Source: Raillietiella orientalis
Lineage: Eukaryota
Assembly: GCA_036172245.1 (NCBI GenBank)
Contig: JAYWIR010000023.1
Coordinates: forward strand, 2,790,001-2,854,000
DNA: 64,000 nucleotides
Reading direction: 5' to 3'
Within the stretch, counting starts at the first letter, position 1. Every line of letters begins with the position of its first letter. The notes beneath the pieces were generated by a model that saw only the letters and a program-made list of their open reading frames with translations, did no database searches and was not told the DNA's origin. The position numbers and the translations under genes were made by a program. Shown piece after piece: positions 1,450-61,900 of the stretch.

Positions 1450-3050
1450 CACTGATGCCCTCTTTTGGTAGATGAGACCACCTTGCAGCCGTCCTCATCA
1501 AGGCGGATGCCGTGCTGGTGACCTTTTGTTGCGAACGTGACTTGAGCACATGGCGGACTGTCACTATGTCGCAGATGTCTCTCGTTACGATCACATCTCG
1601 ACTTCAGCCCGCCTTGAGTGAAGAAGCGCCACAGCAAGTCCGAAGCAAGGAAGATTCTGTGCATTACGCACTCCCGAAGCAAGTTTCCGCCTCATGTCCT
1701 CCAGGACACTGCAGTCCAACAGGAGGTGCGGGAACGATTCCATCGCCCCGCGCCTCGAACAATTCGGAGGAGGCAACTCTCCCGGAAACCAGGTGTGATT
1801 GCACCGTAATCCCCTCAGTGCACAGACAGCAGCACATCCCGTTTACAACGGAGCGGGAACACGGAAGTGTTCGCTCACAGGGAAGGGACACACCAAGCAG
1901 GTCACTCCGCCGAAGGAGTCCTTTCGCCCAGAAACAAGAAATGGTGGTTGGCTGCTGTCGTTGTTTGCCCTGAGGGCCGACAGTGCTGCGGTAAGGCGTG
2001 TGACTGCTATCCGTGACCACTGGTTCCGGTCTTGCAGGAGATCTCCGAGAAGTTTGCAGAGGAGTTTCTGCGGAGGACGAAGTTCCTCTGGTCTCACTTC
2101 CAAAGTGGAAACCCAGGATTCCAAGGCCTCCTGCCGCCAGGCTTTCTAGTTTTGAGGACGGCTGAAGGTCCACGGGGGAGCTACCAGAAGTGGGAACAGA
2201 TGCCTCAGGGGATAGCCAAATCCAGTCAGTCTATGACGGTTGCGCAGCAGCAGCGAAAGAAGTCTTGTGCTTCGAGAGCAAGACGGAGCACTCCAGGGAC
2301 AAGTCCACGATTTGCCACAAAGGGTCAAAAGTCGGGACTGCAGATGCAGTCCGATCTTGTGAATGACCAGGATGTCCGAGCCAGAATCCTATCATAGCGC
2401 GCCCAAGTCTTTCATTCGGATATCCGGGAAGGAGAGAGGCCCAATACAGATAGCTGCGTTTCCGTATTCCTGCGTTCCCCGCGGAGGAATACTGACTTTG
2501 GTAAGAGCACTAGCGGTAGGATGTCTGGGAGCCGGAGAGCCAAGAGGTGCTCTGAGAACATGGGGATCCTTCGCACACAGGCGCAGAATGTGGAGAAAAG
2601 GATGGTGTCGCCAGCATCTAGCATAGCTGGGACACTTATCTACAATGGGCACATCTTGGGTCACTGCGCAGGGTGAATAACTGACGGCGAGATTCAGCAG
2701 GACAACAAGATGATCGATTGTTGTCTTGTGCTGTGGGGAATGCCCCCTCTTATGTTTGTTTAAACAAGGTAAAAGATATAACCAGGCGGTTGCATGATTC
2801 CGCTTCCCAGAGCTGAGCATGCCTTGGAGCTTCTAACCCCATCAGCATCATGTGACAGAGGATTCAGGCCATCTAGCCCCTCTGGCGAGCTATCCAAGTC
2901 CTCACTCCATGGCGCCGCTTGTTTTTGCACAAGAATTTGTTCAACTGAAAGGAAACCGCAAAGCAAGCGAAGAATAACTGATGTGAGCCAAATGTCAGGA
3001 TGTCAGTCGGCAGATGTAACTACTCCGTGTGCAAATGTGCCATGTAGGAA
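1450..3050 (-). mobile_element. Decayed L1/Tx1-like non-LTR retrotransposon, 3' part of ORF2
   Basis: Minus-strand PNCSRRGAMESFPHLLLDCS (ORF 1591..1776) matches the C-terminal CxxC...HxxxxC zinc motif of LINE ORF2. Upstream fragments are frameshifted. Boundaries approximate. Confidence 0.55.
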
Positions 3051-3699
3051 GTAAAGCGAACCGTGAACACTCGAATGAACTTTGAGTGCATGCCTGAGAA
3101 ACAGATAATCAGGAATGTTTGCCATGAGCGGTGTCCGGAAGAGGATTCCGAACTTCGTCTCCGAGAAATTCATGTAGATGGAATGGATCTTTGAAACAGT
3201 CCGGATGCAGCGGATGAGAACTTCAGCGAAAAAAAATTCACCCACGAGCTTTTCGAACGCTTAGCTTTTTTTCGTTCTTCCTTTTCTCACTCTCCTCACC
3301 CGCATGGAAACGGCGGCAGCACGAATCCCCTTGTTTAACATACGCAAAGAGCCTGTCTATACATCACTTTGATCCTTTTGAGCCGTTTGAGGTGTACGTG
3401 GTGCCCAGCTCTTTAAAGTCTGAACCAGTCACTGCTTTTCTCGTCCTCTTGATGGTGTTTTTGGTACGCTGTTGTTACCTTAGCATTAGGAAGAAATCTC
3501 GGAAGAGAGAAGCAGACTTCTCCTTCTGGTCTCTGCAAAAATTTTCTTCTTTTCTTTTAGAGGAGCAATTTTTTTTTTTTTTTTTTTTGGGGTGGGGGAG
3601 CCGAAACTTGCAAGGAGAATAAGAAGAAGAAATACACATTTTCCTCACGTCATCTGATAGGGAAATCCACAATGTTCCATTCCTCAGAGTGGGTCTGGA

Positions 3700-3817
3700 G
3701 AGTTCCTAGCGCCGTTTCGATCGGAGCGAATTTCCACCAGCTTACGTCCAATACCATTACGATCTGTGGCCAACCGGTCCCAGTCCACACTTACACGTCC
3801 TGCGCAACGAGAGGATG
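3700..3817 (+). mobile_element. Short fragment resembling a gag-like LINE ORF1
   Basis: Reads LTSNTITICGQPVPVHTY, similar from memory to arthropod LINE ORF1 segments. It ends at the AT-rich insert. Confidence 0.25.
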
Positions 3818-4130
3818 CGTAGAGCTAGTGGTATGGATTTACTACCAAACCCAAACAAAGTTATTCATGGTCATAAGCCAGATTGGATGATTTTGGATTT
3901 TCTAGCTAATGGTACTCAAGTAGATCTTACTGCCAAAAATATTGATCAAGCTACAGAGGTAGCAAATGGCATTGCAAGTCGTTATTTTAGCACTGAATGT
4001 GTTTTTGTAAATGTGCAGGATAAGAACTTTGCAGAGCAAGTATATAAATTCATTAAAGTTTGTATTGATGGCTCTGATTCAAATATATTCACGTTTGAGT
4101 TAAAATTTCAGTCAAATCGTTTTAAATATA
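3818..4130 (+). pseudogene. Internal fragment of a probable bacterial (endosymbiont-like) hypothetical protein gene inserted in host DNA
   Basis: About 104 stop-free codons: RRASGMDLLPNPNKVIHGHKPDWMILDFLANGTQVDLTAKNIDQATEVANGIASRYFSTECVFVNVQDKNFAEQVYKFIKVCIDG...FKY. Hand count gives 93 G+C in 290 nt (3841-4130, ~32%). Codons mostly end in A/T. Both edges show an abrupt compositional change. Confidence 0.6.
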
Positions 4131-4440
4131 TGTCCCACCAGCGGGGATCGCGGAGGAAAATCCACTTGCTCGGTCTCCACTAACAGTGGCACTTAAATGC
4201 CAACATTCACTGTCGATCTTGATGGCTCCGCACGTAGCAAACAAATCCAAGGAATCCAACACAGAGCAATGATGATTCGACTGTATGAATTCCCTGCACA
4301 CTGCAGGTGATTCAGTCAAAGTTTTTCAAATCATTCCTCACCTGTCCCTTAGGGTTCATCTACTCCAAGAAGCTGACTGGTCTGTCTCGGGCGAGGTAAT
4401 GGCACAGCGAATGCCCGAACTCCTTACTTCAACGCAGAGC

Positions 4441-5110
4441 TTTCTTTTTTTTGGCTTCGCTAAGCACCTCGAGAACCGGCGCTCGCCTGGCAGCTCGCGA
4501 AACTCTTTGACGCTGTTCCCCTCCACCTGAGGGCGCGCGTTGACGCTTCGAGTTAGGGAGTACCTCAAGCAGGGGACCGCCAAAAAAGAACAGGCCCAGG
4601 AAGGGCTCCGGAGAAAGGAATCCGTTCCTTTCACCCCTGGGAGGGAACTCCGAAGGGAAATCTGAAGGGAATCTCTCCCTGTTTCCGTCCTGAGGAATTC
4701 CCCAGAGAAGGCCGTTCCATTTTTTCTCCTCCGAAGGCAACCCGGAAAGGATCTGTTCTTGGAATCTCGTCTCCGGAGGGAAACCGCAATGAAACCTCTC
4801 CTTGTTGGTGCTCCTCTAAAGAGAACCCCGAAGGAGCGCTTCTAAATTTTTTTCTCTGCAGGGTCGCTCCCCAAAGGGAACAGCGCTCTTCTTGACACAC
4901 TGGAAAGGTATCAATCCGACAGCCCCATGGTACGAGATGGAGAGGGTCCTCCCTGAGTAGAGGGAACGGCTCCATTTGCACAACCGGCGGGAAACCCCGA
5001 AGGGAACTGGGCTCCTTGCCTTCTGGAAGTACCCCGAAGGGTCAACTTCCAATCCCGGCCAGTCAACGGAGGCATCCGGATTCCGGGTTCCACCAGTGCT
5101 GCCCCCGGCA
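4441..5110 (-). mobile_element. Long tRNA-derived SINE family A, 5'-truncated copy with A-tail
   Basis: Its reverse complement aligns by eye with 37280-37972. Shared segments include GATCCTTTCCGGGTTGCCTTCGGAG and the terminal GAGGT(G/A)CTTAGCGAA followed by poly(A). It also aligns with 42465-42580. Confidence 0.7.
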
Positions 5111-6050
5111 GGTGATCACGTTGGCGAGGAAAAACGGATGATCTCGTACCGGCCCACAAAAGGTAGTGCCTGGTTGCAGGGAACCGTTTGCACGTGGAAG
5201 AGGATCCAGGAGCCAAGTGCGGAACAGGTGCGACGTTTCCTGTATGCTCTCAACAACTGCACGCTCCGGGAGATCCTGGAAGATCTCGTGAAGAGTGCGT
5301 GGGCGAGCAGAACCTCCTTCGCCGCCGCGCTGTCTTCCCTTAGGGAACACACTTGCAGTAAGGCTGCTGCCTTACTGCAAGATAGGAGGTCACTGTGGAA
5401 ATCTCCGGAAGGATGAAAGGACTAGGAGAATGGACGATGGACCAGCTCACCAACGCTGCGACCCCAAGTGCTCTACCTCATAGACTTTTGCGCTGAGGAG
5501 TGCCACTGGGTATTCCGGAGGAAGACAAGCAGTGGCTCCCAGTGCTCATGAACATCCGCACCCTCCCCTTAAAGTGGAAGGAGTCGGCATTGATGCTGCT
5601 GCACTGGTCCTCCCGTGCAACGTCCGCCGGCATCTGTGGACACGGATGTGTGTGGATCCGAACTGTGCAAGGTGCGGGGAGAGGGAATCCCTTCCGCACC
5701 TCCTAGTGGCTGTCTTGCCCTCCGACCCTTTAGGGACGCTTTGCCCCGACCCTCGGAATCCCCGTCAGCAATCCCAGGGATGTTTAAAAGAGCCTCTTCC
5801 TGCGCGACGCCCTTACACCGGCAGCATGCCCAGTAGCATTTTGCTACCCACACGGCGGGTTCGTGGCTGCATGGAGCAGCGTCAGAGGAAGCCAGAACGA
5901 CAGGGAAGCCATCTATTCTGCTGTCTTCTTCATGAGGACAGCATCCATATGGCCCCATCTATGAGCCTCGCAACAGGAACTTGCCGGCATCCTTACAAGA
6001 ATACAGAAGACACCTTTCAGCACACAGTGATCCCGTTCCAAAGCCCCCCT
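5110..6050 (+). mobile_element. Decayed L1/Tx1-like ORF2 C-terminus
   Basis: Reads WKESALMLLHW/LPCNVRRHLWTRMCVDPNCARCGERESLPHLLV (5575-5710), a zf-RVT-type zinc motif with frameshifts. Confidence 0.65.
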
Positions 6051-6247: not shown

Positions 6248-6281
<34 letters not shown>

Positions 6282-6425
6282 ATAAACGCCCTGGCGTGAC
6301 CGGGTGTCAACCAGTGCCGCCCCTGGATGTAGGCCAAGCAGAGTCATCTTGCGGGAGGGACTCGAACCCACGAGGCACCCGTTTCTCTGGCATCGATCCT
6401 TTATTTTCACCCCGTCACGGCAGGG
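6248..6425 (-). mobile_element. Short tRNA-derived SINE-like element (family B) with a 30-nt A-tail
   Basis: Minus-strand Pol III B-box GGGTTCGAGTCCC (6357-6369) lies ~80 nt before the T30 run at 6248-6277. The A-box is poor. Confidence 0.45.
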
Positions 6426-37972: not shown

Positions 37973-39959
37973 CTCTAAAAAAAAAAGCTGGAAGGAAAAC
38001 AGCGAAGATAGAAGAAAAAGAACCCAAAGATTTTCATCATCCTAGGTCAATAGTAACGATCCTCGCGGGGTGGCTACTGGCTTTTTTCAAAAAAAAAAAA
38101 AAACCGACGTCCAAAACCAGCCCTAGAGCCTATAGCTGCATGGTTTCTGGTTGCAGCGGCATCTTTGCTACTGCGGCAGTGAGAGATGATTTCCTAGGAT
38201 GAAACCAAGGAATTTCATCGATTCTGAGCACCCCACATAGTGTATTTTTCTCGTATTCTGGCGGGTAAACGGGTACAGCATAAAATCCTCAGTAACGTAC
38301 GCTCAGAATAAACAGCGAAAAGGCGTCCGTTCTTGAGTGCTTCCCTGTTTGCAGCCGAAAGTTGCGTGCCGTACTGTACGCCGCTCGGCATGTTATCTTC
38401 CCTTTCACTCACTGCGCACGCCATCACGGATCCAATTTCTGGACACAAACATATAAATGTGCTTGTGTGTAAAAGTGTAAATGTATGTATACACTTCATG
38501 TTTCTGTACTTCATTTTCCTGTACACAGGAGGGAAGAGGAAACTTCGACGGGTGCGTGAATGAGATTTGGCTTCGTTTAACACAGATGAACAGGTGCGAG
38601 GTTGTAACACTGTTTGCGAGATGTGCAGAAATCGGAACCTGGGTCCTGCATTGCAAACTGCGACTGCAGTATGACCTAGTGACCACTGGCTCCCTTTTGC
38701 TAGGCGAAGCCGATAATTCCCATCGGTACCCAGCCATGCCGGGAAGAGATTGGAGGAGCCGGAAGAAACCAAGGTCCTTATCTACGAGCAGGACACCTAA
38801 CGGGACTCCCAGTGTCCTGCCTGGTTCATCGTCTGCTGCTGCCCAGCGGTTCCGCTTTTCGAAAGTTCAAAAGTTATCTGGGTGGGATCTTCTTCCTGCC
38901 CCTGTCTGTCCGTCGAGGGAGGAGGTTGTGTGCGCTTCCGCGGCGAACACCCCAGGGTTGAAGCTGCTGCTGGCTGGGGCCTCGGACGCCGAGCGATCCG
39001 CGACGCCTCCGATGCTGTCGTCGACTCCCACGTCTACCCCCTCCTCCCCCCCGCCTCGCAGTCCCGGTGCCGAAAGCATCCCCCACCGCTTCGTGACGCG
39101 CGCCGGGCATTCCTAAACTCCCCAAAACTCACGGGAATGCGCTCATGAGTCGCGCGCTCCAGACGAAAATCTCAATTTCTCCCTCCTCCCCCGGTTCAGA
39201 GAGACGCATCTCTTCAAAAACAAACATCTCGTCTACACCCTCGTGGCGTTAATGTGGACTCTTCTGCTCTCCGGCTGTCTGTGCGCTCCCGAGCGGGGGG
39301 AATCAATGATCCGCCTCTTCGACCACTTGATGTGCAGAGTCATACGTAGTTCTGCAGATGATGAATGAGGATTCCGGAGCCTGCGGAACCAGCAGCAGGT
39401 CGATTTTTAAAAAACTGTTATTTTCCTGTTGACAAGAACACAAATGGAATATCTTCCCACCTGCTGGGCCTTCTTTTCGGATTGAAACGCCAAGCTCCCG
39501 TTCGGGAACGCTCCTTGGATGCCTGAAGAGTTTTCCAGCCCGGAGTGATTTGCGACTCATTAATCGCATCTCGAGAGATGATGTTTTCTCGGTTCGGATG
39601 AAGAGGGAGCGAGCGAAGAATCCGAGGTATGCTGGGACGCGGAATTCATCTTGCGTCTTCAGACGAGACGGCCCGGATGAGAAATCTCCTCCGGCTTCTC
39701 GAGGCTCGTGCGCTCTCCCCCCCTTTCTTTCTGATCGGGCGGGCGGGCGGGGGGGGTGGGGCAGAGACATCCTGGAGGAGGTCAGCGACGTGGCCTTCCG
39801 GTTGCGGGGCATCGGGAGGTGTGACCCGGCAGGGAACGCGCCTTGCCCTCCAGGAAGCGTGATCGCTCCTCGAGATTTTTTCGGGACGAGTGCACTCGCT
39901 CGACTTCGCTCGAGATGGATGCGAGCACGACGAGAAGAATGAAAAAAATCACGCAGCTG

Positions 39960-40800
39960 GAAGCTGGGCAAAGAATAGCAGTCGGTCAGTCAGAGGGTTT
40001 CCCGGAGATTTTCCCGAAAGAGGCGGAATCCGTTTGCCTTGCGCCGGAGGCAGACTGGGCGCGAGACGCACGCCCCGTTTCGTTGCTTCCCTCCCGTAAA
40101 GCAAGCTACGGGACTCCGATTCGCTACGGCGCGTTCCGGGAAGGCTTAGGGGAATCCCTGGCAGCGAGCCGTGAACTCGACCGGTCCCCACGCTTGCTCC
40201 AGGACCCATGCGTCACCCCGTGTCCTGCGATCCTCTGGCGCATCATCATGGATCCGCAGCATCCGTCCTGTGAATCACGTTGGCTTTATTTCAAGCGAAC
40301 CAGTAGCAGAAAAGGAGAGAGAGAGAGAGGGGGGGGGGGGGAGAGGACCTTAGACTGCAGGCGCGCTCCACTCGTAGAAATGCGAAGCGGACTTGGAGGA
40401 AAGGAAGATGAGGATACGAGAGGGAGTGAAGAGTGGACCAACTTTTCAGCCAGGCGGAGTCACCGCCGTTCGGACGTCTGGGAAATGCACTGCCTGGGAT
40501 ATCGCCACCGGAAGCAGCGGTGATGACCAAGCCGGCGCAGGCCCAGTTGAGGAGTCCCGACGAGATCATCCCGATTATCCAGCTTTTCCATTTGGGGGGG
40601 GGGGGGGGCTTGTTTTTTTTCCAAACCTCCTTCCTTGGATACTCTTTCCCATCGATGGGAAACCGGCTGGTACGGTGGCGCCGGTATGCGCACCCGGGAA
40701 GCGTGGCCGCCCCTCGCGCCTGCCGGTATTCTCCGCTGCCGGAAGAGGTCGAGCGGCAAGAAACGACAGAGAAATGGGGGGGCGAGGATGGTTTTCTTCG
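39960..40800 (+). mobile_element. Decayed LINE RT (Jockey/R1/I-group-like)
   Basis: Collinear: GFPEIFPKEA...ARPVSLLPSRK (RPISLL), PDEIIPIIQLF and HPGSVAAP (PQGSVLxP). Confidence 0.5.
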
Positions 40801-41760: not shown

Positions 41761-42329
41761 GAGGCGATGAGACGATTTCGGATCTGCAGAAATTCAAGCA
41801 CGCGGAAACTGGATGCAGGTTGGATCCCGTGCTCTCTCGCTCTCTCTTCTCTTGGGAGAGGATTCTCCGCTCGCGCCACTTCCCGATTCCATGGGCGCGG
41901 TTCCTTCAACTCGCGCCGTCTCCGCCGCTCGCCTGGCTGGTGGGCCGAGGCGGCGACCACCCGCCAGGAAGCAAGGGGAACGGGGGGGAAGTCGCCTCGC
42001 CTCGCGCGCGCGCCCTTGCTGCAACTGCGATTTTCGAAAGCATCCCGGAAGGCAGCGCCTCCACCACCTCTGTCTGGGGTCCATTCGCCAGGAAACCCAT
42101 TCCATCGCAGTCCGTTCGGAATATGCTCTGAGCACTCAGCTGTTTTCTTTTGTTTCCTTTTATTGGGGAGTGGGGGGGGGGGGGATGGAAGAGGGGGGAT
42201 CTGAGGGTTGGGCTGGAAAGTCGGCTGAGGGTGCCGTTTGCGTTTTGCAAATTCAGCCTTGAACAGATGCCTGGGTGGAAGACCTAGGTCCGGGACGCAG
42301 GAGGAACTACTGTCCTCTTCTTTCACGTT

Positions 42330-42790
42330 GCTGGAACGTGAAAGAAGCAGGCCAAAGGCCTTTGGTCTCTTCTTTCACGTTCCGACTTTCTCCGAAGAGA
42401 GCAGCTCTTCTTGAACTCTGGAGAGCTAACCCCCGAGGGATCGAAGAGCTCTATGAAACGCGATGGAACGGTTCCATGTTCACCTTGAAGGGAACCGGTT
42501 CCTCGGATCCTGGAAGGACGCCGAAGGGTCAGCTTCCAATCCCAGCAGGCCAACGAGGTCATCCGGTTTCCCGAATCCGCCGTTGCAGCACCCGAAGCCT
42601 ATTAGGCCAGCCAGCGTCGTCCTGCGGGGGAGGAGGACTGGAAACCCCACGACGCACCCAACTTCTCGGTGGTCGATCCTTTATCAAGTGGGGATTCGAA
42701 CCCGCAATGCTTGGCACCGCGCGCGGAGACCGCAGTCATGTGGCCGCCAATGCGGATCTCTCCTCCACAGCAGGTTCGACGCAGAGCCAC
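42330..42790 (-). mobile_element. Long tRNA-derived SINE family A, copy lacking the 3' part
   Basis: Minus-strand B-box GGGTTCGAATCCC (~42691-42703). 42465-42580 matches 4965-5095 (CCGAAGGGTCA(A/G)CTTCCAATCCC). Confidence 0.65.
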
Positions 42791-43560
42791 CTCTTTTGAG
42801 AAGCAAACAAGAGGAACGGGGAGCTGCAACCATAGTGGGTTGTCCGGCGCGCCCACTTGCCAAGCAGCAAAAGGTCTTTCAGACAAGACTGAGCGGGGTC
42901 CGGGAAGCCTGGAATTCCCCCCTTCCTTTTCCTCCTTCCCTACTGGGACCCGACGCAGTTTCGGCATGATCCCAGGCACCCTGGAAAAACGTCCGAGCCC
43001 CAGAAGGAAGTTTTCGGTTCTCCTCTCAGATGGAATCCACAGGGCCAGAAGTGAATCAGGGAGGCGAACGCCCGGTTATCGATCGCCTCCGTTCGAGTGG
43101 AAACTCTTGAGAACCGATGCAGCTAATTGTCCCTCGGGAGTTCCTGTTGTGGTCTCCTGGAAAGGCCATTTCTCCAAGGTGGACTTTTGGGGGACAGAGC
43201 GTGACTGCGGACAAATAGCGCTCTGGAGCGTGGCTCGATTCGTCGGTTCCCGCCTAGCAGTGGCTGATAGAAGTAATGGGTGGCGAACCCGGACTCTGGA
43301 TCCTGGATCCCTTTTCACGAACGGCGTCAAATCTGCCCCATCGTACGAGAAGCTAACAAAAATCTGCCACATCTTCCGGACCGAGGTTCTTTCGATAGAA
43401 GAGGAAGAGGAAGAAGAAGAAGAGGGAATTCCACAAGGACTCAGGAATGAAAGTGCAGGAAGCGTTTTTTGGAAATTACCTAAAAGGCGAGCCTGTTTTC
43501 TCAGGCGTGGTGTGCGGATGGCTCTCAGAAGGCGCTTCATGGCGGAGCATGCCGCACTTT
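42790..43560 (-). mobile_element. Decayed I/R1/Jockey-group LINE linker and RT N-terminus
   Basis: TSVRKMWQIF (linker), NRAFASL..TSFWGSD (N.PF...APGPD-like) and GKWARRTTHY (GK...SYRP-like). It abuts the SINE A copy. Confidence 0.35.
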
Positions 43561-44689
43561 TTGGCTCCTGCGATCTTCCGAACGAGGAGACCCATAGGAT
43601 TTTTTTCCCTACCTTGCTAGGCGGCGGAATTGAGATTTCAAGCTGGAGTCTGTAACTAATTGTATTGCGCTTGTTGAGCGAGGAGACGAAACAAGCCCTC
43701 GTTGGTGTCCTTGTTTCGGCGATGGTTAAGCAATGGCATTTGTGTAAAGCCTATAATCGAGGAGGAGAAATTGCGGATCTGGGAAACAGGGACGGGAAAA
43801 CGTAATGAACTCCAGGCAAGAGCTATTAAGACGAAACCACACAACAAACACGGCCAGTGCTTATTTTCCTCCTTGTCAAAACTGTCAGATCTTCTGACAG
43901 ATGATCTCCATGCGTCATTTTCCAAATATAGGTTATTCTCCTTTTCCCCTTCATTACCGAATTCCTCAAACTCCGAAGAAATCTGTCCACTTTCTCGGGA
44001 GAATGGCTTCGATGCAAATAAGTGAATCTGTTTGGCTGCAAGGAGAAAAAAAGAAAAAAGAAAAAACGCCTTCGAAACCGGCAGTCCGTCGAAACTACGA
44101 AGCAGGCAGACGGACAGCAAGGTCTGAAAATACAGAAAGCTCGAAACAGGCTGGGAAGACGAATTCGGGATGCTCAGATGCGGACGCAGGTCCGGTTGCT
44201 GCGTTTCCCGAACACCGAATTGCTAAACCGGGATATGTTTAGCTCCAGCATCAAGTCATCTTCCGTTGAGAATCAACTGCCGAGCATTCCTTTACATGAA
44301 TCGAAACGCCGTTCCTCATTTCTCCTTTCATGTTCGTCGCTGGCGATGATGACATATTCAAAGAGGTGATCCCTGTGTCACAGACTGTCACGCACTCCTT
44401 CCACTGAGTCACACTCACGAAAAATCAAGGCAGTTTGTCACTTCAGGCTCGTTTCTGAAAGAAGGATGAAGACAATTCAAAAATGAAATTCAGCCCTTCC
44501 TGTAGAAATCTGTTCCTGGTAATGAAGGCAAAAACGAAAAAAGCACACAAAAAAGAAAACACCATCTTCATTTCTTCAGCAAAAAAGGCTATTATTATTT
44601 TAGATCCGCTTATTCAGAGGTGAGGTAGATCTGCAATCTAATAATGAGTAATACCTGTGGTCCGTTCTTGCTAAACCCATGCTTGTCCT

Positions 44690-44950
44690 TATAATGGGCC
44701 ACACAAGAGAACATGGTAATTTGGTTTTCTGTCGCAACCACATATTAATACTTTTGTATCATGGACATCCATTTTTGCGTCTGGGACGCAGGATGCAAGC
44801 CAACGATTTCCGTGGAACGTTTCCCCTGTTTTGCAGATGAGGAGGAGTGCGGGCTTGATTTTGATCCGAACCCACAGGGATACCTGGTCTTGGATGAGAA
44901 TCAAAAACCAGGGCTCTCTTACAATCACTTCTGAATCAAGTTCTTTCTTT
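44690..44950 (-). mobile_element. Decayed APE endonuclease fragment of a CR1-like LINE
   Basis: VSLWVRIKIKPALLLIC...KVLICGCDRKP resembles the LWVxI...GDFNxP pattern. Confidence 0.35.
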
Positions 44951-45899
44951 CTTTTTGAAACGCACACACCAAATATGTGAAAAAGGATCCCCGCTGAGCT
45001 TAAGCCTACTTTTGTTGGCTTTCTACTGCCATTAAGATTTCCCAAACAAAAATGCACGTAAACATCCCATTCCAGGAGTTCAAAATGAAAAAAAAAAAAA
45101 AAAAAAAAACGGTAACTGTTAGTTGTAGTAGTCGTTTGCAGACATCGCACGGTCAACTGAGAACAGTGTGTTTCTAACCCTTCTTTCCTGCTGGAGTCAT
45201 CCACATGCGTTATTCGGGCGCTCGGTGAAAGAAGGAATTGATAGCAAGCTCTGCAAGAGGAAACATTGAAAGTCCCGATTGTTCCCTTGCCTCATCGGAT
45301 TGTTCTTCTCGTATAGTTGTTTCCATGCAGTTTCCATAGCACATTTTCATCATCTCGATCGGTCTCCTTTCTCGCAGGAAACAGAATAGAATGCCACGTT
45401 CATAGCTGTCCAAAGGGTCAGAGCAGACTAAAAAACTGTCTCAGAGTTTTGCACTACGTGTTTTTCCTCTGTTCATTTCGGAGTGGGACAATTTTGATGA
45501 AAAGATGTCGTTCCTATCCTTAAGAGAGTGGTATTTGTGGATCCATGCCTCTGCTCTAGTGTGGTCAGTGTTTTCCCCCATAAATCACACGATCGCTTTT
45601 GGGTTTTGTTACCATATTGCACCCCGGAGTACTTGAGGGAGAGAGGAATCAAAAGTAACCGAATGATATCGTGGAGCACAAGGTCAGAGATAATCAGGAT
45701 TCGATCAAAGTAACTAGACTAGTGAATTCTGGTTGCAGCAAGCAAAATTAAAAAAAAAAAAAAAAAAAATGGCAAACTGCATAAAAAATGTGTTGAAACC
45801 TCCACGTGAGGGCATTTCACAAACAAACAGACAAAAGAGGAACAGGGAGAGATGATCAGACAAAACGCCCAACATCTGGAGTTCTTTCAAGAGCGCAAT

Positions 45900-46376
45900 T
45901 TCAAATGTGGACAATGCACATGTTGCACGGAGCTCTTAAGGATAAGCTGCAAATGCATCATCTTCGGATCAAGGATCTCGTTCTCATAAACGTAGACTGA
46001 CACAGGATGGCAACCGATTGAAATCTGCCATTTTTCGAAAGAGTTACCGAGGCTGATCCACATCCAGATTCAGTTCCAAAGTGCTTAAGACAGCTGAGAT
46101 TCTGGGCAGAAGAATTTATTGGAAGCGTATTAGGAACAGCATCGTATTAACATGTTAACTCGATGTGTCATTATTAATCATTTTTATCATGGTGGGGCTA
46201 CAAGCGCCGAACGAGTGAGGATGCCCAAAACTCTTGGTGATTCTTTGGAATGTTTCCTCGCTGAGGATACAAATCTGCACTGCCAAGGGTTCAGACACCT
46301 GAAAAAATTGGGAAATTTCGGAAAGACAGGTCTGCGGTCAGAAACGGACTTGGTAGTCTTTTTCGACACTAAATGA
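45900..46376 (+). mobile_element. Decayed CR1-like RT fragment
   Basis: LECFLAEDTNLHCQGFRH...ETDLVVFFD resembles QHGFR...D.I.LDFxKAFD. Confidence 0.45.
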
Positions 46377-47754
46377 GACGCACAGACAAAACGAACTGTA
46401 AAATCTCATGATTTAAAAATAGTTTTTACCTTCTTCAGCAGACTGTAAATCGGTGAAAACGGCGCAGTTGTGATTCGCCTTTGAGACGAGAAGCAATTTG
46501 TGATTGAATTGAACCTGAATTTGGGTCAAAAAAACACGGCTGATGCTCACAGCGCGTAAGCACAGAGGGATGTTGAGAACATGTTTTTTTTTTTTTTTTT
46601 CCTGAAAGAAAATCATGATTGCAACTGGAAACATGTCATTTGACTGTTCTTCAACTGCATGTTTTTGCAGTACTTTTCCGTGTCCTGTTGAGAGCTGTAG
46701 AAAAAAAAAAAAAAAAGGAAAAAAGAATTTCCTAGACTAATTACCTTACTCCTTGGTAATGGTAGTTCGTATGAGAAGCCATCTTCATTTACGAGACCCT
46801 GTCGTCGACCACAACCACTTTGCAAATTTGACGGGTCCTCTCGTTTTCCTAGACCACAACTGTGTTGAGGGGCTCCAGACTTTATCGAGATAGGAATCAG
46901 TGGAAATTTTCCTGGGGAAAGAGGTGATCTCATGGTGTGTCGGTTCTTACAGTGCGGGCCTTTGGAATTCCACGCAACTGTCTCATTTCATCCTTTGAGG
47001 ACGCCAGTGTTTCGATTCCAGAATTTGCTTGCAAATGCAATTTCTGAACGCAGGAAGGGTCGTTTCCTTTTCTAAACACAAACGTCCGAAGCAAGTGGCG
47101 TTTATAATAACACGGTGAAGCACCAGAAAGAACAACAGCCAATTTACCGGTTGGGAGTATTCGGTAAATTAGTTGTTCGAAGAGCTGATGTGAGCTTGAG
47201 GGGCACGAAGGGGAAGGCAGAAGTCAAGCGCTCGAGCTGACTTCGCTACTGTTGGAATTAGGACAACAGAAAATACCAAGGAATGAGATGTTTGATCCTT
47301 GTCTCGAGGCGAAATTTACTGCCTCGGTAACTTGAGCAGGAAGAGCAAACAGCTAAAATGTCAGTCAGTGGGAAAAGAGCTCGAAAAATAATAGCTGGGA
47401 AAATCATTTCGCTCCAGAGTCTTTTCTTGGGAAAAATCCAGCTGGGCAGTTGCTTGCACGGGCTACAATTTCTTGGGATAATCGTGTGTTGACAACCGAA
47501 TCTTCCTGATGGAAATAAATTGATCGGTTGCGAAAGAATCGGAAAATCTGATTATCGCTGGGTAGGGTGGTCTGTCTCGTTGAACTGGAACCAACTGAAG
47601 ATCATTGGCATTGTGTAGGGGAAAAAAAAAAAAAAATGAAAGTTGCAGTTTTCTCCATGAAAACGAGTGAAGGTTGGATGGATCGCACCATTCCAGCGGC
47701 CGAAATCGTTCTGCCGCTCCTCGGGGTCTAGCACACCAGCTAATCTCCAGAATT

Positions 47755-47774
47755 GTGTGTGTGTGTGTGTGTGT
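47755..47774. repeat. (GT)n microsatellite
   Basis: Read directly from the sequence. Confidence 0.95.
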
Positions 47775-48789
47775 TTTTACGCAATCGCTTGACCGTAAAA
47801 CCAGAGATGCTAGTGGTACATGAATCCAAAACTACAACCAGTTCTTATCGGTTGTACTCATTATGAACCGGCTATGGACAATAATAAATATTATGGACCG
47901 ATAATCAAAAAACAAATGGGAAAGGCGATATCTGCGTCTCTGCAGACTCCTGACCATTGCTGATCATCGGCGGTTAATGGCTCTTTCCGTATGCACCTCG
48001 AAGTGGCTGCACAGAATTTCGGCAGGCATCCGCAGTGCAGCGCAGGGCACCCCAAAACAGATACCAAGGAACATCATCATGCTCCTTTCTCTCAAAACAA
48101 GGGAGCGAGGAGCACGATGATGTTTACATCATATTCAAGATTCGTTTCGAGGTGCATCAGAATTTGGTGTTTTCCAAAGACAATTCGCATACGCGCGCGC
48201 GCGTGTGTGCGTGCGTGCGCGCGCGCTCGTGCTCTGTTATCCGATCACGAGGAATATATTACGACGAGAGTTCAATACAGCTGCACACTAAATGGAAATC
48301 AAATAAAAGAGCAGACCCACCATGTGATGCGCATCCATTCGCGAACTGGAACCGCGCGACGGAAAATAGGAAATGCGAGCGGCGACGCTGCACCGCCAGC
48401 TCCCACTTCCCTGAAAGTCTCTAAAGAGAGAATCCATAAGAAAAATTAAGAAATGGATCGAGCTGCTTTAAAGGGTGTAGAATTTTCCAGAATGAATGAG
48501 GCAAGGACGAGAGGATCGTTCAGGCAGCGGCTAACACGGAAGTGCGATTCCCGAGGGCAGAATGTCTCGAGAAGGAATGTGTTTTTGAAGGTGTAGACTC
48601 TAGTGTCCGACCAGGGGCGCGATAACGTCTATGTCAGATTCTAAGATGCTGGAAAAGGTGAGTCGAAAGCTCCTCTAGCTTTTTCAGACAGGGGGTCCAC
48701 TGTGACCCATTCATAACGTCAGATCTACCTCTGACATTGTGAGTCTTTGCTTGATAGTGGAAAAAAATAAATAAACAAATAGAAGTCTC

Positions 48790-50150
48790 ATGGAAAAAGA
48801 TTCATCTCAGAGCGAATGAGTGAATTCACCTCAGCATGCTTCTCCAGGCATAGAATGGAAACGGATGAGGTCAGGATCAGGATTTCGCCATCGGATACTT
48901 CAAGCCGCCTTTGGAGATGGGAGCCACTGTTGGAGGAAAGATCGAATGCAAGATGGACTCCTTGTTGCTTCGGCTTTTTAGAGATACCCATTTTTTTTTT
49001 TTTTTTTTCTCTCATCGCTCTTTCCTAGAGCTTCCGCTTTTGTTCTGCTCACAGAAGCTTCCACGTGCCCTTCTTTTGTTATGATAATGTTTGATCGAGA
49101 CCGCCATTCGGCAGACATGGAGTCCGTTAAGTAATCAGCAAGTCTCTTGCGATTTCAATCGCGGGCTGCGCATCCTTTCTCCCGGGCAAGGATGGATAGA
49201 GTTTGCTTCGATACTCGGAGGCTGTTTTTAGTGGGTTCATCCCACCGTCGATGCTTCCATCAATTGGGCTGGCTGATGAGGTTGGAGCTAACCTGGACTG
49301 CGCTTTCATTGCTATTGTTCCCCGCATGCGTAAGAGAGGAAAGCAAAAAAAAAAAAAGAAGAAAAAAAATGCAACAGCCGTTTCCTGTGACACACGTGCA
49401 GCTAAGCATTCGCGGACGGCCTCATTGTGTCCTTCGCCAAAACACTCCTTGACCCATTGCTCTCCTTGAAGGAACGAAGTAACTTGCCTATTATTCGCCT
49501 AGGGAGCAGAAGGTTGAACCTACAGCTTCTCAGTACAATCCGTGGGATAGATTTTGAAATTGTCCTGGAGAATTTTAAGCAGCCAGTTCTCCATTCTCGT
49601 GGTTTGTGGATTGAAACCGTTCGTGGGGTCATCGTTGAAGTTGTTGGCTGCTAGCCAGAATCGAGTGCCCTCTTTGCCCGCTCATATCCTCGCTTCCGTT
49701 GAGCAGCGAGGCTGCTGATGAGAAAACGATACTCTTTTGCAGACATTTTCTTTGACGTTATCCAATTTTGTCCCTGCACGAGGTCTATCGTGTCTGTTGA
49801 GCATCTTGCGCTCCGGAATCGAATGTTTGTTCGGACCATTTACGACCTTTCTGAAGTGACCTGAAACAGCGTTATTTGCCTTCGTAGAAATCATAAGTAC
49901 AAAGGAAACAGTTTCTTTTCTTTCAAACGCATCAGTAGATGATCTGGCTAATTACGTGGAACCTGTTTGTTTGGTAGAAGGTTTCGTGATTGCAGAAGGA
50001 AGCTGCCTCTGGCGCCCTCCTCACAAGGTGTTACCGGGAAGAGCATGGACTGTATCTGTGAGGTTGATTCATGAGCAGATGGAATTCATCAGCTTATTCT
50101 TCCAACTTAGACCTTCTGCATTCCATCGGACGATGAGCAAGACTCCTTCC
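48790..50150 (-). mobile_element. Decayed, internally deleted CR1/Jockey-like LINE
   Basis: Collinear: LIVRWNAEGL..K (endonuclease start), EYRFLIS, LKFSRTISKSIP...LLRSF, MNPLKT and GVHLAFDLS...NSLIRSE. Confidence 0.45.
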
Positions 50151-52639
50151 ATGGAGCTCATTTGCTGACACATAGCTGAGAATTCAGCTATTCGGTGCCA
50201 CACTCTAAACCCTACGTGGTTGAACCAGATACCTTGGGGAGAAGCTGGGAATAGGCGTGGCATCTTTGTCTAAAAAATGAGGTTCTTCGAGATGGAGAGT
50301 ATTCTACTAGGCGGTTTTAGCAAGAATAGAAAATCGAGGTGATCCTGATGGGATGCGAGGAAGTTCAGAGATCTCTCATCCTTCATCTTTCATCCATCAT
50401 CCATTCTTACCAGTAGTATAGTAACTTCCTGAAGAATGGTATGCCATGCAAATTGCGCTGCTTCGGGTCGTCTTTCTTCAAATCACCGGGAGAAATAGAT
50501 AGAATTCGATCGCATTTTTAGCAATTCCTTGAATGCTTCTAAAGAGGAGCGCTTCTTTCGCGTCCACAGTTTCGAGTTGAAACAGTGCCTATGAAGACGG
50601 TCAGAAAGTCGAAGATGGCGTCTCTCTTAATTACGTCGTAACGAACCACATCCAACGTTGTGAACGGAGAGGACTCCATAGGAAAGAGGGAGACTCGTGA
50701 AAATGTGACCCTTTCAGCACTGCTCCGGACAGAGGAGACTCAGAGCAAACGGAAAGAGCCGTCTCAGCTCTTTCATGCTTGGGTTTCTCAGAAGGAATGA
50801 ACTGAAGCGGTAACAACGGTATCCGGAAAAGGATTCACAACACTTAGGATGGAGGCAAGGGAGCTTACTACATGCCTTTTCCTTTCCGTACAGTGGTCGT
50901 CGTCAGAATCCCGGACCAGATGAAAAAAGTGGATAATCGATGTCCGTAAGTCGAAGGAACTTTACTTACAAAGTAGGAAAAAGAGTGGGATTATGACCCT
51001 TGGATAGGGCTATGGAAAAAACAAAAGAACAAAAAACCTAGTGGTGGCAAAAATAAGTTTGAGGACGCATCTTGCATTTTTCCAAAGTGTCCTTCCCAAC
51101 GTCACGCCCATTCCATTTCGAAAATAACCTCACATTTCGAAATCAAGCCGATCCCTACATCGGTACAGATTTTTCATATCGGAAAAGGAAATTCTAATCT
51201 TCGCGGTCAGAATTAGAGCGAAGTGCTCCGAGCATTTCTCACGGCGAATGTCTTCTGGTTCACATCGGTCACACTTGCGACCCCGACTAAATGAAGAATG
51301 GAGGTTCCTCTTCATTTAGTCGTGAAAATGACTGCGCAGAGCAAAAAGAATCAAGTTCCTTAAAACAAGTCACTTGTGGGGAGCTTTGGAAATGAAAAGG
51401 CAAAGCAAAGAAAGCCAGATGCAGCAAGCTTTCCGAACAAGATTGAAACAAACTTCAAGATCGGTTCCCTGGAGTCTCATCAGACTCCATCCTCCTCAGA
51501 TGCTTACACATACGCTTTCGAAACATTCAGACGAGCACTTGTGCCTATGAACCGAACAGTGCGGATTGAAGATAGTTTTGGGGGTTCCTGCACAGAAGAA
51601 GTGCTGATCCTATCAGAACACGCGAGACATATCGTTCTCTTATCCATGATCCCCCCAAAATCTGGTCACCCAAGCCCGAGATTCCCGAGTTGGTCGGCTC
51701 GCCGCCCTGTTTTCACTTACTGAAAAGATAGCTGCAGACAACAACTTCCACGCTTGTGTTCGCGGAAGTGCAGGCATTCACAGAGATGCGGTTTCAAAAT
51801 ACCGTTGCCATGTTTTCTGAAAGGGCATCTGCAATCAAGAGTACTTGGCTTGGAATGCAAGAAAGGGTGCTACTGCATGTCGCAGTGCTTGTTCTTCGAA
51901 GATAGACCAATGCTTAGGAGGTTCCAAGAAATCTTACTTCTCAGGACGTCTCCTGAAACCTAAGGAATAATCTCTACAGAGGAGGCATCTTTACGACAAA
52001 GATCGACTTGTTTGCCAGCCAGTGTCCGGATTTTTCTCGAGAATTTTGTCTAATCTTGGATACGGTGCAGCAGAAACTGCGAAAGGAAGGTGAATGATGA
52101 TGCAGCCGGGAGGAAGGATGAGAAAACGATCAACAGCGCTCTCTGCATTGTGAAACCAGTGAAAGACAACAGTAAACACGCTTCAAAATATGGTGAATGC
52201 AAGGACGAAGCCATCGATGCTTTTAGAAAAAATGTGCTGTGAATGCATCTTTTGGCTTTTTTACCGAGGTTCATTTTTCTGAAGTATTTCAGATTCTCCA
52301 TTGGAACATTTGTCTCGGAAGGCTGATGTTGGCCAATGAAGCATCATTTTGGAACCTGAGAAATGTGTTTCAAAGAAACGTTGCTGGAGACTACCCTAGT
52401 GTTTTCCAACAAGCTACAAAGATAGAATTATGTTCTGATAAACACCTTTATTCTATCTATACTTCTTAATGTAGTGATAGTAAAGGAAAGTCTTCTCTCT
52501 TCCAACATGGAAATCCCCTAAGGAGAAAAACAAAAAAAACGTTGTCTTGGAGATTGTAGCACCAGATTTGTAGCACCAGATTCCTCAGTGTGCAAACAAC
52601 TGTAAAAGGAAAAAACCAAGACATGCCTTGGATCCGCTG

Positions 52640-55950
<3,311 letters not shown>

Positions 55951-56949
55951 AAGTGTTTCCCATAATTTCGGTGTTTCTTTCCTAGACTGCCGCGCTTACT
56001 TGCTACGGGAGTGTATACTTTCCTACGACCGGCTGTCTCTCTTTCATCACATCCGCGCTCCGAAACAACTCAATCATCAGCCAAACATCGCAGCGTCGGG
56101 AATGCTTTGCAGCATCCACTCTTTCCAAGATGATGTTCAGCGATTCATCAGTAATAAACGATAGGCATTCTCCATGCTCATCAACTGACGATCGAAGGAC
56201 CTAGGTTTCATCCCGTCAATTAGAGAATGCATCCAACATCCTTTGAAACAACGGAATGGGTGACAGCTGAACCCTTTAAGTGGCTGGATGAATGAATGCG
56301 GTGGGATCTATTCTTAGAGATTCAGTGAGCTGGATGCTGGACCGGGCGCCATGAAAATTTATCCGTGAAGTTTGGAAACCTGCGTAGCAAATTGATTTCT
56401 TGCCTCTCTAAAAGTAGCAGTGCCTATAAACGGCAACGCTATAACGGAAAACCAATCAAACCATATCTCAATGTGCTGCCAATTTCTCATCAGTTCGATG
56501 CTTTTTTCTTTCCTTTTTTTTTCTTTTTCTTCTTTTTTTGCGTGTGGAATCAAAAAATTGGTTCCTCTTTTTTGGAAAATACTCCCAGTTTATTAATAAA
56601 TAACAGTCCTGCGAAAGTTCTTGTCATGCTGCTTCCGATACTGAAAGCTGCCTTCTAAGAAGGGAAAAAACCCAAAGCGTACCGAGTGCGATGCTTGGCG
56701 AAGAGATTAGGGTACGAGGAAACGGATAACTTGTAATTTAGAGCTGTAATTAGAAATTCAAAACATGAGGGGATTCATAATTCATAACGCAATTAGAACC
56801 CGAGTGTTCGAAATTCCGGATGAAAAATTGTTCCCGGGAATGTGATAAATTTCGATTTCATCTGTTTCGGAGAAGGAAACACTCTTCTTGTTTATGTTGG
56901 TACATTATCATTACAGTACGGACGGCGATTCGGCTTCGTCCCAGTTCGA

Positions 56950-58900
56950 GTGCTCACCGAGTAAATTATAGCTGGAGAGCTAAAACGGATGGTGGATTTC
57001 CTGGAAGACTCGCTTGATGTCCCTTGCGTCTTGAAATATTTCCGTCAAGAAGGCCGTGCTGTTAAACTTAGACTTCAGGTCCGCTCACAGATCCACCGGG
57101 TGAGAATGGACACCGCCAAAAATCTGAACGCACCATCTTTTTTTTTTTTGTCCCGGCGCGACATCCAGGCAGTTCCTGACACGATCTCCTCCTTGAGAGA
57201 GCGAGGAGATCAAAGATTCAGGTTCCCCGTTCTTGTAGCAGGAGTTCTGCACAGAGACCAGCTAACAAACATCGTGGTCTCCAGCGCTACGAGGTCGCCA
57301 TGGGATTTCGGGCAAGCTTCTTTGAAGCCGACCAGCTCTCCTAGTGCCGGTCGTCAAGGATTCGTCTTGTCAAAGAGAGGCACGAAGAAATGGCACGGTT
57401 CCCTTGAGCAAGGGTGCGGGAGCGCGAGAGCTTTCTACTGTCGGGCTGTCGTGAGGCAAACGGGAAGAAAAAATGGCAGCCATTTCCTCTCAAAAAATGC
57501 AGCGAAGATGAATAGAAAGAACTGAGAAGCTGGATTCGACTGTTGGGATTGAAGCAGTCCAAGGAATAGCTTTGTTGTTGATTGGCGCGCGCGACCTATT
57601 GGATTGTCAAGAAGACGAAGAAACCAGGAAACCACCTCGGGCAACCGATAAGGAGAGAAGCAACCAAGAAGTCGAAATTTGCGATTTCCTGTTCTGGAAA
57701 ATTCTGATTGCAACAAACGGAAAGCGCATAGGAAAAGGACACGATCTCCTTTTTGCAAAGGCAGACTTGTGGGAATCGAAAGCCAACATCCACCGCAGCA
57801 GCCGCTTTCATGGAAACCAGGTCGTCCGATGGAAAAGGGATCGGTTGATGGAACGAGAGCTGCCGCGCCGCGCCAAATTGTACACTCTGGTTTCAAGCAG
57901 GGAAGACCTGAATGCGTGCTGTGGCAGCCTATCGCGCCAGTCGGAGCTGCCGCCATGCTCCAGAAAGAGGAAGAGGGAGGATTCACGTCGGGACCATTCA
58001 CTGAGAGCACCTCTCTGAATCTCTTCTGACGGTGCTGAGCTCCGTTTCCCGTCACAAGCGCAGGAAAGGAGGCAGCTGCCCAAGACGCCGACGCCGACGG
58101 GATTCTTCGTAAGGCAGAAACGCCAGCGACCCCAACGTCATTCTCGCGATAGTCCCCGGGAAGGACGCGAGCGCCTTCTTGACCTTCGCCGCCCCGCTAC
58201 CTCGACCGGAGGAACTATGTTAACTCCGCCTCTACCGTAGGAGAGTTTCTTGAGCACGCAAAGCTTCTCCTCCAACGCGGACTCGGACGGGTTCTTCTGA
58301 ATCGCTGGTCGGCGCCGGAGACGTCGCAGACAGCAGGTGGCTCTACATTCCGACGTCCAGCTGGCGCAGGATCTCAGGAGGATGGATGGCCGAAGACGGA
58401 AAGCTGAGGAAGTTCCTCTGGAGCAGGAGGAAGCAGTCGGTCAGCTGCGTCATCTCCAGCGGCTGGTGCTGCACCGGTCGCTGAGGTTCCCGGGCTGCGC
58501 TCCGAGTAGCAGTTGGCTCAGGAAACGACTTTGGGATCCCTGTCCGGCTCCCGAGCGACGAAGGGGACGAGTAGGAGCAGCGGCACCCGAGCGAGTTGCT
58601 GCGACGCGCCCTCATGGGAGCAGTGACGCAGGTGGGAAGCCTGTGGAATCTCCGATGGGAAGACCCTGTCGGGCAGGCGGTGTCTCGCCCACTCGAGGCC
58701 ACCCTGGGCCTCCCAGTCAGCCATCCAAGAATGCCCTGCCGAGACTTCTGGGAGGAGCGAGCGGCCCACGGTGGCGGCGGCGGCTCATCGGCGGCGCGGA
58801 TCGACTTCCTCGCTGTCGGTTCGGTAGCTGCGCTTTTGAGAGCCTGGCTTGTGGGACCTCAGACGAAGACCTCAGTCTCCGTCTGAGGGTCACCGGTCCC
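56950..58900 (-). mobile_element. Decayed L1/Tx1-like LINE 5' part (possible ORF1 plus endonuclease)
   Basis: EVLSVNG (TLNVxG), FRLLGCFSPYRLPEVVSWFLRL...KLFLG (NVYAP...FF...GDFN) and PWRP (WRLN). The ORF1 assignment for 58060-58900 is weak. Confidence 0.45.
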
Positions 58901-58999
58901 GGAATCGTTTTCTTCCTCCTTGGCTGCCATTTCTCCCGGACGGGGGGCATGGCAAAGGAAATGACTTGGATTTGACCATGGATGGGAGGGGAAAGCTTT

Positions 59000-61900
59000 T
59001 TGCCTGCTTTCCGAGGACAAGGTGATGCCAGTCATCAGAGGTATCAGTAATCATTCAAATGGTCTCGCAGCTGTGAGGGTGACTGAATAAGAATGACGAG
59101 GGCATTCTGGGTAGCAGGCTCTTCCCGTGATCTTCAAAGAGACTTGATCTTTTAAACAACCTTGGCGCTGAGGACTGTCTTCTACAAGATTTTCCCTTCA
59201 GTCTCTTCGTTTTTCGGTCTACCTATTCAAGTTTGGATCACTGGGCAGATGATTCATCTTCTCTCATTTGGGAGATGGTGATCTTTAGTTCCAACGGCTT
59301 CTCGGAAGAAGATTCCTGGGATTAATGCTCGAAAAAAAAAAAACATCCTTCTGAGATTTTTGTATGTCGATATTCAAACGCATTGTATCCAAGTGTACGG
59401 GGTGAGCAATCCCAACACTGCGAGGCAGGGATAGTTCCGCGTCTGGAACATCGTCTTTCATCCGCGGTTCCATGTAGTTATTCTTCCTACCTCCTCCTCC
59501 CCTTCAAAATTAGAAGAGAGAGAGAGAGAAGGACACTTGAAAGCGTGGCATCTCCTGAAACCTGAAGAGAGAGTTTAGCAGCTCTTTGATCGCACTCCAG
59601 AGAGAATTCAGCAGCCCGCAGACCGAGGGAGACCTCGACAATGGGACAGACCAAGAGGTAGACGGGTTGCTTGCGTCTCACTCCCTCAAGGTGGAGGAAC
59701 TCGAGGCGCAAAACGCAAAGCTCACAATCAGATGGAGATGGAGGATGGTGTTCGGTATTTTCCCTGAAAAGAAAAATTTGCGGCTTCCATAGCGGAGTTC
59801 TATCGTTTCATCTCATCGCATTTTCAAAACGAGCCCGACATGCAAAGCGCGAGTTGATCCACGTTTCGCATCACTATTTCTTGCCCGGACAGACTCCTAT
59901 GCTTCCACTTGGCTGAGGCGAGTGCAGAACCAGTCCTGGAGTAGAACCTGCCAGACTCTCTGTCGGCTCTTTCCTCCCTTCCATCCGTGAACTTTCTACG
60001 GCTCCTTGGTCGTGGGGATTTCTTTTCTTAAGCGCCTGATCCTTGGAGCTCCGAAGCATCACTTGTGGGGTTCCAGGATTCCTCAGTGGTTCACGAGAGA
60101 ATGAGATCTGATCACCGAACCGTTTCCCTACAAGGAGTGCATCCAGTCGGAAGGGTCGTGGTTCGCTGGAGACCGGGAGAATTTCCAAGTCACGCGGTTT
60201 CCTTTTCGCCTTCCGATCTTCACTGGCAGCTTTACAGAGCACTTGCATAGGAGGAAGAGGGAGTTCCCATGGGACCCACCCTTTCTGAGAATCTCGTGGC
60301 TCGCGGGAAAAAATTCTATTCCCATGTCCGTTTCATTGCAGAAGTTCCGTTTGCTCCTTTCTCTTCCTCCTGCCTGGCTCAACACCCGCACCATTTCTGT
60401 TCTACGGTTTGTTCCACCTCTGGTCTCTCCAAACAAGCGTCACCTCACAACCATTCCGTAGTGGCCAGCGAGAACTCCAGTCCCAGAGGTGCCCTGCGCG
60501 CATCCCATAGCGTTCCTTCCCCTTCCCCTCCTTCCCAGTTTTCCTGCTTCTCTTTTTTCACAAAATCATAAGCACTCATGACGTGGTTCCCGCACCCAGC
60601 TCCTCGACCGGGAATCACGTGGGCAGAGGAGAAGACTGATCGCTCACGAGCGAAAGACGATTATCTTCGACCGCAAGATTCTCGTTCTTAGAAGCGATGA
60701 CCGCGGATGAGAGCGCACCCGAAATGCGCCATCGCCATCTGCGCTTTTCCGCTGACCCATCAACGGTTGATGATGAAGGCGCAAAGAAGGAGCTGCTAAT
60801 GATCGAAGGGGACCAACGACTCGGTGGCAACTACTGCAACCACCAGATGGCGTGATGGGATTTGGCTCCGGACCCATTCGGTCTGGAGCTGGCCGATTGA
60901 AACTTCTCTTTCCGCAGATGTGGGTGGTTCATTATGTGGAAGCTCGCGCTCTCTCCTACGTATTTCTTTCCGCTGCCCCAGCTGTTCGTTGGGAATGCGA
61001 GCCAGAAGAAACTTCCGAATAGGAGTCCGTGACCTCGCGCTGCTGGCTGGGCGGGGAGACATCCGGGATCGGTAGGAAGTATTTCTTCCAGCAGAGCGAC
61101 CGAGACTCCCAGGAATAGCGGCACCACGTCTCGCAATGAGGAAAGTCTGCGCCCGGGAACGAGAATTCTCGAACAAGACTTCCGTGAGGAAGAGAGTGCC
61201 GGGGCTCTCTCGGAGCATGGAGGGAGCAAGGAAGGCATCACCGGTCGGAGGAGGAGGCAGGAGACAAAAGCGACCTCCGCTGAGCCTCCTTGCATCCTTC
61301 TACCGCTCAGAGAAGAGAGCAGAACGGTGACGATTCGCGAAGGAAGACTTCTGGGTTCTTCCAGTGGCTCAGTGGTGGTAGCGGTGGCGACAGTTTCGCT
61401 TGGGGGATCATTGTGACGGACTCCGGGGATAGATGTGAGTCTCGACCCCCAAGGTTTGGATCGGGGACTCGGAGTTCACCGTGTGACCAGAGGTACGAGT
61501 GAGGTCACAGCTTCCAGAGACCGCAGCACCGTCGGTCGTCTCATGTGCACCGCTCAAGTCCAGCATGCTGGGTATGGCGGCGGCAGCAGAGCCTGTGAAC
61601 CTCCTCTTCCGCAAAGCTCCCTTCTCGAGGGAGGATCCAAAAGGCCGCGAATCCCTTCTAGGGAAAGGAACGTTCCAAGCCCACTACAGGCGCGCAGGAT
61701 CAACCCCGGAAGGGCGCCTCGCAGTAGCTCTCCTCTCTGAGGGAGCACCTGATCCTCTTTCACTTCTCGCCCTCCAGGTCCTTCGGTTTCGAGGGCTGAC
61801 GTGGTCAAGTGGACGTGCCCCTTCTCATACAAGGACTCGGAGTTCACCGTGAGACCAGAGGCATGAAGAAGGACCTTTTTCCAGTGGACTCGCCCAGGTA

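Follow-up and report, generated by a model that had tools for sequence, protein, structure and literature searches.

The fragment and its chromosomal surroundings

The window, a 64,000-nt stretch of the Raillietiella orientalis genome, corresponds to positions 2,790,001 to 2,854,000 of contig C23, which is at least 2.85 Mb long in a 210-Mb genome of 491 contigs. At window positions 3818 to 4130, on the plus strand, lies a 313-bp insert that Wolbachia alignments, gp10 of phage WO, and PHROG 21102 identify as an internal fragment of a prophage WO gp10-like gene (codons 216 to 319 of 410, plus one base). Its GC content is 32.9%, compared with 50.9% at 3590 to 3817, 49.7% at 4131 to 4440, and 54.0% for the window, and the lowest-GC 313-nt stretch within the 64 kb begins at 3819. 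The insert comprises 104 open codons without a stop or an indel, with a third-position GC content of 21%. The first-pass annotation had described about 310 bp at about 32% GC with sharp edges, A- or T-ending codons, and about 104 codons free of stops and frameshifts; these features all held up, and the Wolbachia match ends at both edges.

On both sides of the insert, the adjoining DNA is single copy and has a GC content of about 50%. Neither the host-like left flank (3590 to 3814, ~51% GC) nor the host-like right flank (4184 to 4440, ~50% GC) had a paralogue or an empty site in the genome. Searches of the immediate flanks against 30 reverse transcriptase loci, Pfam, and PDB sequences gave no significant retroelement match; judged only by eye, the left flank resembles an R2-type reverse transcriptase relic. 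Against 29 loci retrieved with the endonuclease-like motif of contig C9, the flanks gave one 36-nt match (~3560 to 3595), which is a poly-T run, and matches against 17 longer stretches (E = 0.006 to an AT-rich stretch; P = 0.005 on the wrong strand) were judged to be due to chance. High-copy repeats begin 310 bp away from the insert. The repeat at 4440 to 6050 (plus strand) has copies dispersed across the genome, which identifies the contig as host DNA. First-look searches with it returned 4,067 and 3,395 candidates, 40 of which were scored in each case; the copies listed were 68 to 90% identical, the long ones 69 to 82%, and the part at 5120 to 6050, which contains stops in all three plus frames, was 77 to 82% identical to the long copies. 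The 3′ part of this repeat carries what we take to be a decayed LINE-type CCHC motif. The earlier description of frameshifted retroelement relics beside the insert fits the decayed repeats at ~4440 to 6050; the DNA that touches the insert gave no significant retroelement match.

Comparison of window positions 1 to 40,000 and 42,001 to 62,000 with eight genomes revealed no further clear Wolbachia DNA. A match at 6248 to 6286 was a poly-T artifact. A weak, gapped 52-bp match at 39931 to 39982 (83%, E = 1e-4) to the beginning of a small WO gene, which in Wolbachia genome G014 lies between a methylase and an ankyrin gene, may be a tiny scrap or may be due to chance. At ~2430 to 2640 (plus strand), the translated window weakly resembled the endonuclease-like end of elements from the same genome, which are presumably of the R2/NeSL type; E values within a small local set ranged from 3e-4 to 0.04. 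Long open frames encoding an endonuclease plus a reverse transcriptase, up to 1,810 codons in length and often clustered, occur on many contigs (L123 to L152), and this points to recently active LINEs. A small contig of the genome carries one full-length 18S gene of eukaryotic type, and a survey that yielded 15 matches from the 11 of 47 candidates scored also revealed partial 18S rRNA copies on C30, C23, C20, C8, C19, C15, C1, and C21.

At the left junction, the boundary can be placed only to within 3 nt. The in-frame ATG at 3815 to 3817 corresponds to GTT in the closest Wolbachia copies and to ATA, a single substitution away, in more distant ones and, judging from this comparison, probably belongs to the flank. 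At the right junction, no Wolbachia match extends beyond 4130 in 60 genomes of the genus, and the frame reads through into the flank (4131 to 4183) as far as a TAA at 4181 to 4183. The open frame spans 3710 to 4183, and the ATG-to-TAA portion forms a 122-aa open reading frame that appears to be a chance chimera. The suggestion that start and stop both derive from host-like sequence was thus correct for the stop and probable, though ambiguous, for the start. A search for target site duplications (at least 3 nt long, no more than 5 nt from a junction) found none, although the flanks are old, and the insert showed neither a terminal repeat nor a poly-A tail.

The donor gene

The insert aligned without gaps to a Wolbachia locus (L008:1018-1330) with 94.9% identity (297/313), and the match ended exactly at 3818 and 4130. 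Within the Wolbachia genus, 22 of 60 genomes matched the insert; the best match, also gap-free, was in genome G014 (95.5%; L053/L075), and the best matches spanned the same region. Of 65 pattern matches in a species-level collection of genomes, 2 could be confirmed, each from a record titled Wolbachia. L008 belongs to uncultured Wolbachia sp. WOLB0025 (90% amino acid identity) and a second locus, L009, to the Wolbachia of Tyrophagus putrescentiae (82%). Three of 50,697 phage records matched, all of them WO; gp10 of the wKue phage (BAA89636.1) ranked first, with 74% amino acid identity to the insert peptide over 105 residues. The peptide also matched the profile of PHROG 21102, a family of unknown function, with an E value of 5.9e-42 over profile positions 215 to 317 of 405. 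A representative-protein search gave 41 relatives, mostly near 410 aa, that were matched in the same internal region. The likeness to a Rickettsiales or phage WO-associated hypothetical protein proposed in the first-pass annotation was thus confirmed by the PHROG profile, by WO gp10, and by the Wolbachia contig.

The closest donor loci share gene order with WO gp10 of wKue, and the donor gene sits between what we take to be terminase, methylase, and resolvase-like genes on one side and gp9, RhuM, and RepA on the other. The donor gp10-gp9 pair (L008:373-2677; L205:7500-9803) is conserved and slightly overlapping, and relatives of about 410 aa occur well beyond WO. What lies in the window matches the family profile but is a fragment, neither full length nor placed beside gp9 as in WO. 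Prophage genes are exchanged between strains, so the affinities of the insert would not fix a supergroup for the donor. The insert is most likely a piece of prophage WO DNA from an unsampled Wolbachia strain.

Searches for function gave little. Pfam returned nothing significant for the insert peptide and no family for the donor protein. A word-indexed protein search at 58 to 186 aa returned no candidate for the peptide, since the donor protein is 410 aa long. The ESM Atlas gave unnamed bacterial clusters only, with GAPS4b_N at 0.76 as a lead and no more, and among the 28 members of the donor alignment one matched PADLOC and one matched NCBIfam, both weakly. The model of the donor protein was confident (pLDDT, 86.7), and in fold searches it resembled CENP-N, RdgC, and KA1/TBP-like folds only weakly (TM-score by query, ≤0.29; Z, ≤8.2), so we assign no function; a DNA-binding role, based on the modeled likeness to RdgC and CENP-N, would be a guess. 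A third protein match within the host genome (C20; 38%, E = 1e-8) was set aside, as no gp10-like frame was seen there and there was no DNA match to the fragment.

Substitutions, the second copy, and the history of the two copies

We compared 31 Wolbachia or WO rows with the insert and dropped 4 that were less than 68% identical without gaps, leaving 27 full-length homologues, 21 of them distinct. Six letters of the window copy (3846, 3851, 3906, 3959, 3968, and 3992) were absent from all 27 and also from every covering contig of four public sequencing runs. All six are nonsynonymous, five are A>G or T>C, and they hit invariant positions; the letters at 3835 and 4024, private relative to the four closest rows yet present in other Wolbachia, were not counted. 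The nonsynonymous-to-synonymous ratio of 6:0 differs from the 78:96 seen for differences between L008 and L009 (Fisher P = 0.009), an excess that is inflated because demanding absence from all homologues discards synonymous changes seen repeatedly in diverged copies. Relative to the four closest rows, the ratio was 7:1, and dN/dS from the insert to L008 was 0.32, compared with 0.14 to 0.23 among three Wolbachia copies. The substitutions as read from the alignment do not suggest purifying selection, and together they would make a moderate case for relaxed selection on the insert. There was a weak trend from AT to GC (both copies together, 9 of 9 transitions, P ~ 0.03; window copy alone, 5 of 5, P = 0.15). 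The closest copy, that of G014 (in L205), is itself frameshifted just downstream by the loss of one base, so part of the decay may predate the transfer and have occurred in the bacterium.

The intact frame might be taken to mean that the locus is a new functional chimeric gene, running from the ATG at 3815 to the TAA at 4183 and expressed as a 122-aa protein, and the open frame at 3710 to 4183, with an in-frame ATG right at the left edge of the insert, speaks for such a gene. The frame was kept open in only 24 of 20,000 shuffles. However, after six random changes it is still open in 77% of cases, and no A>G or T>C change introduces a stop into this sequence, so that the open frame is expected by chance at such divergence and says little about age or function. 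The private changes fall at invariant positions, and the piece is cut in mid-domain: it starts inside the strand at 210 to 226 of the donor model, ends before the strand at 323 to 327, and cuts the region at 155 to 282 that the fold matches span, so that any product is unlikely to fold like the donor. Since the donor start, the donor stop, and about three-quarters of the gene are missing and the cuts fall inside predicted domains, a working protein is not expected, and we regard a functional chimeric gene as scarcely credible.

A second, overlapping piece of the same gp10-like gene lies at 416,219 to 416,511 of the 5.1-Mb contig C9 and has two indels, an insertion of 10 nt and a deletion of 8 nt. 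This piece forms the end of a mosaic some 0.8 kb long (L002:999-1792; C9, ~415,720 to 416,510) that also contains two out-of-order IS5 pieces, 78 to 80% identical to Wolbachia copies, and an 87-nt piece 97% identical to a Wolbachia locus. The IS5 part was matched by 32 of the 60 genomes of the Wolbachia genus, and plasmid records gave no match to the mosaic. The two gp10-like copies have unrelated flanks and differ in extent: the window copy reaches 42 nt further 5′ and the C9 copy about 19 nt further 3′. When a WO stretch of 3.45 kb from Wolbachia was compared with the assembly, it matched only these two scraps; no neighboring WO gene was carried along beside the insert, and no other part of L008 matched the genome outside them.

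Formally, live Wolbachia or phage WO reads spliced into a host contig could account for the insert. Five public runs were listed, none of RNA and none from the host, each with a fraction of 0.05 to 0.06 of the words. All eight pieces in the contigs from the four runs examined stop at or inside the insert; at 3816 and 4130 their loose ends carry on into further Wolbachia gene sequence, and none spans a junction or reaches the host flanks. A copy without an indel, 95 to 96% identical to known strains, could moreover come from an unsampled live strain. However, the host and Wolbachia flanks have no sequence in common at either junction, no longer WO stretch is present in the assembly, and the C9 copy, with its two indels on a long contig, has two private changes (C3906 and G3959) in common with the window copy. 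An assembly artifact is thus very improbable.

The insert is nested among Wolbachia copies, is coassembled with host DNA on both sides, and is truncated with private changes; it is very probably a real, nonfunctional nuclear Wolbachia transfer (nuwt). Its private divergence of at most 1.9%, compared with about 20% between copies of the neighboring repeat, makes a fairly young insertion the best reading. We infer that the piece is physically integrated and is not expressed. WO-region DNA would have been released from Wolbachia in a germ line cell, and the 313-bp piece would then have been joined into a chromosome, most likely via end joining of a double-strand break, the route known in general from organelle and symbiont insertions; after integration it would have drifted without selection. 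The proposal of a “young, nonfunctional capture” in the first-pass annotation fits this evidence, although the open frame offered in its favor says little about either age or function and, given the C9 copy and other scraps, the insertion is not a lone event.

How the two copies are related is about evenly balanced between one nuclear ancestor and two captures. In the tree, both group with G001/G014 at 98/96, and the window-C9 clade has values of 91/81, below the starred support level. Descent of both from one earlier, longer nuclear insert, with the window copy being secondary, stands at slightly under an even chance. The clade is consistent with it, as are C3906 and G3959, common to both copies and absent from all 27 homologues and the covering read contigs, and nuwts are known to duplicate (PMC12693587). 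Against a single insert, neither copy contains the other, the flanks are unrelated, the clade falls below starred support, and the C9 letters at 3929 and 4087 are also seen in other Wolbachia copies. In the other history, to which we give an even chance, a single resident Wolbachia/WO lineage already bearing C3906 and G3959 was the source of two captures made at separate times, with the window copy being the younger. Since the split, the window copy would have gained two changes and no indel and the C9 copy seven or eight changes and two indels; this asymmetry is suggestive but not significant (two-sided P = 0.07 to 0.18). The differing ends and unrelated flanks agree with separate captures, and gp10 can be broken within Wolbachia, but no sampled Wolbachia has C3906 or G3959.

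In a broader version, an unsampled Wolbachia lineage long resident in the host gave up the same WO gene on two separate occasions, and the two copies would form, with the many other small inserts of the genome, a dated series in which phage WO is an overrepresented donor. We consider this unlikely; if it were true, whether phage lysis or phage particles feed nuclear transfer would become testable.

Known nuclear Wolbachia transfers and other scraps in the genome

Functional Wolbachia-to-host transfers comprise entire genes or large genome parts; the f element of Armadillidium is an example. The window insert has the same donor genus and direction of transfer, whereas it is a quarter of one gene and is probably not expressed. 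Compared with WO gp10 of wKue, it holds only codons 216 to 319 of 410 and has no neighboring WO gene. It more closely resembles the published nuwts of nematodes and arthropods: a short, truncated piece of a Wolbachia gene in host DNA, with related copies elsewhere and no sign of function. In Onchocerca, nuwts are reported to average 434 bp, to have been duplicated inside the host genomes, and to be associated with repeats (PMC12693587), and for the woodwasp Sirex noctilio 12 short Wolbachia gene remnants are reported (PMC8962096). The donor of the window insert is a phage WO gene, and such genes are also among the donors in Dictyocaulus viviparus, for which WO phage matches on 15 scaffolds are reported (PMC4046930). 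Unlike these nuwts, the window copy has as yet no indel or stop and is a single unrearranged piece, in contrast with the mosaic on C9.

Transfer of symbiont DNA to a host is a well-known event, and both WO-derived and duplicated nuwts are already in print (PMC4046930 and PMC12693587). Taken alone, the insert matters little, adding a small relic of Wolbachia infection to those already known. The low private divergence indicates that the host lineage carried WO-bearing Wolbachia fairly recently, and the clean edges make the insert a good marker for junction PCR. Its greater value is as part of a set: with such inserts catalogued across the whole genome, the donor strain could be placed and any overrepresentation of prophage DNA tested.

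IS5-like scraps were seen on C47, C55 (L015; ~489,400 to 490,150), C22 (L016), C12 (L017), and C19 (L019); by eye, C22 also holds other IS-like pieces. On C47, an AT-rich block of about 2.8 kb (~1,254,400 to 1,257,200; L046) contains a frameshifted IS5 and an IS630-type scrap. The block also holds a 366-codon stop-free frame (L014:375-1472), which lies between two IS5 5′ ends; judged by eye, the C55 scrap seems to carry the start of this frame as well. The C47 frame matches the Pfam MavL macrodomain with an E value of 3e-106 and is 88% identical to a genome of the Wolbachia genus (G037). As an effector-like gene that seems to be unbroken within a nuwt, it is of greater interest than the gp10 scrap.
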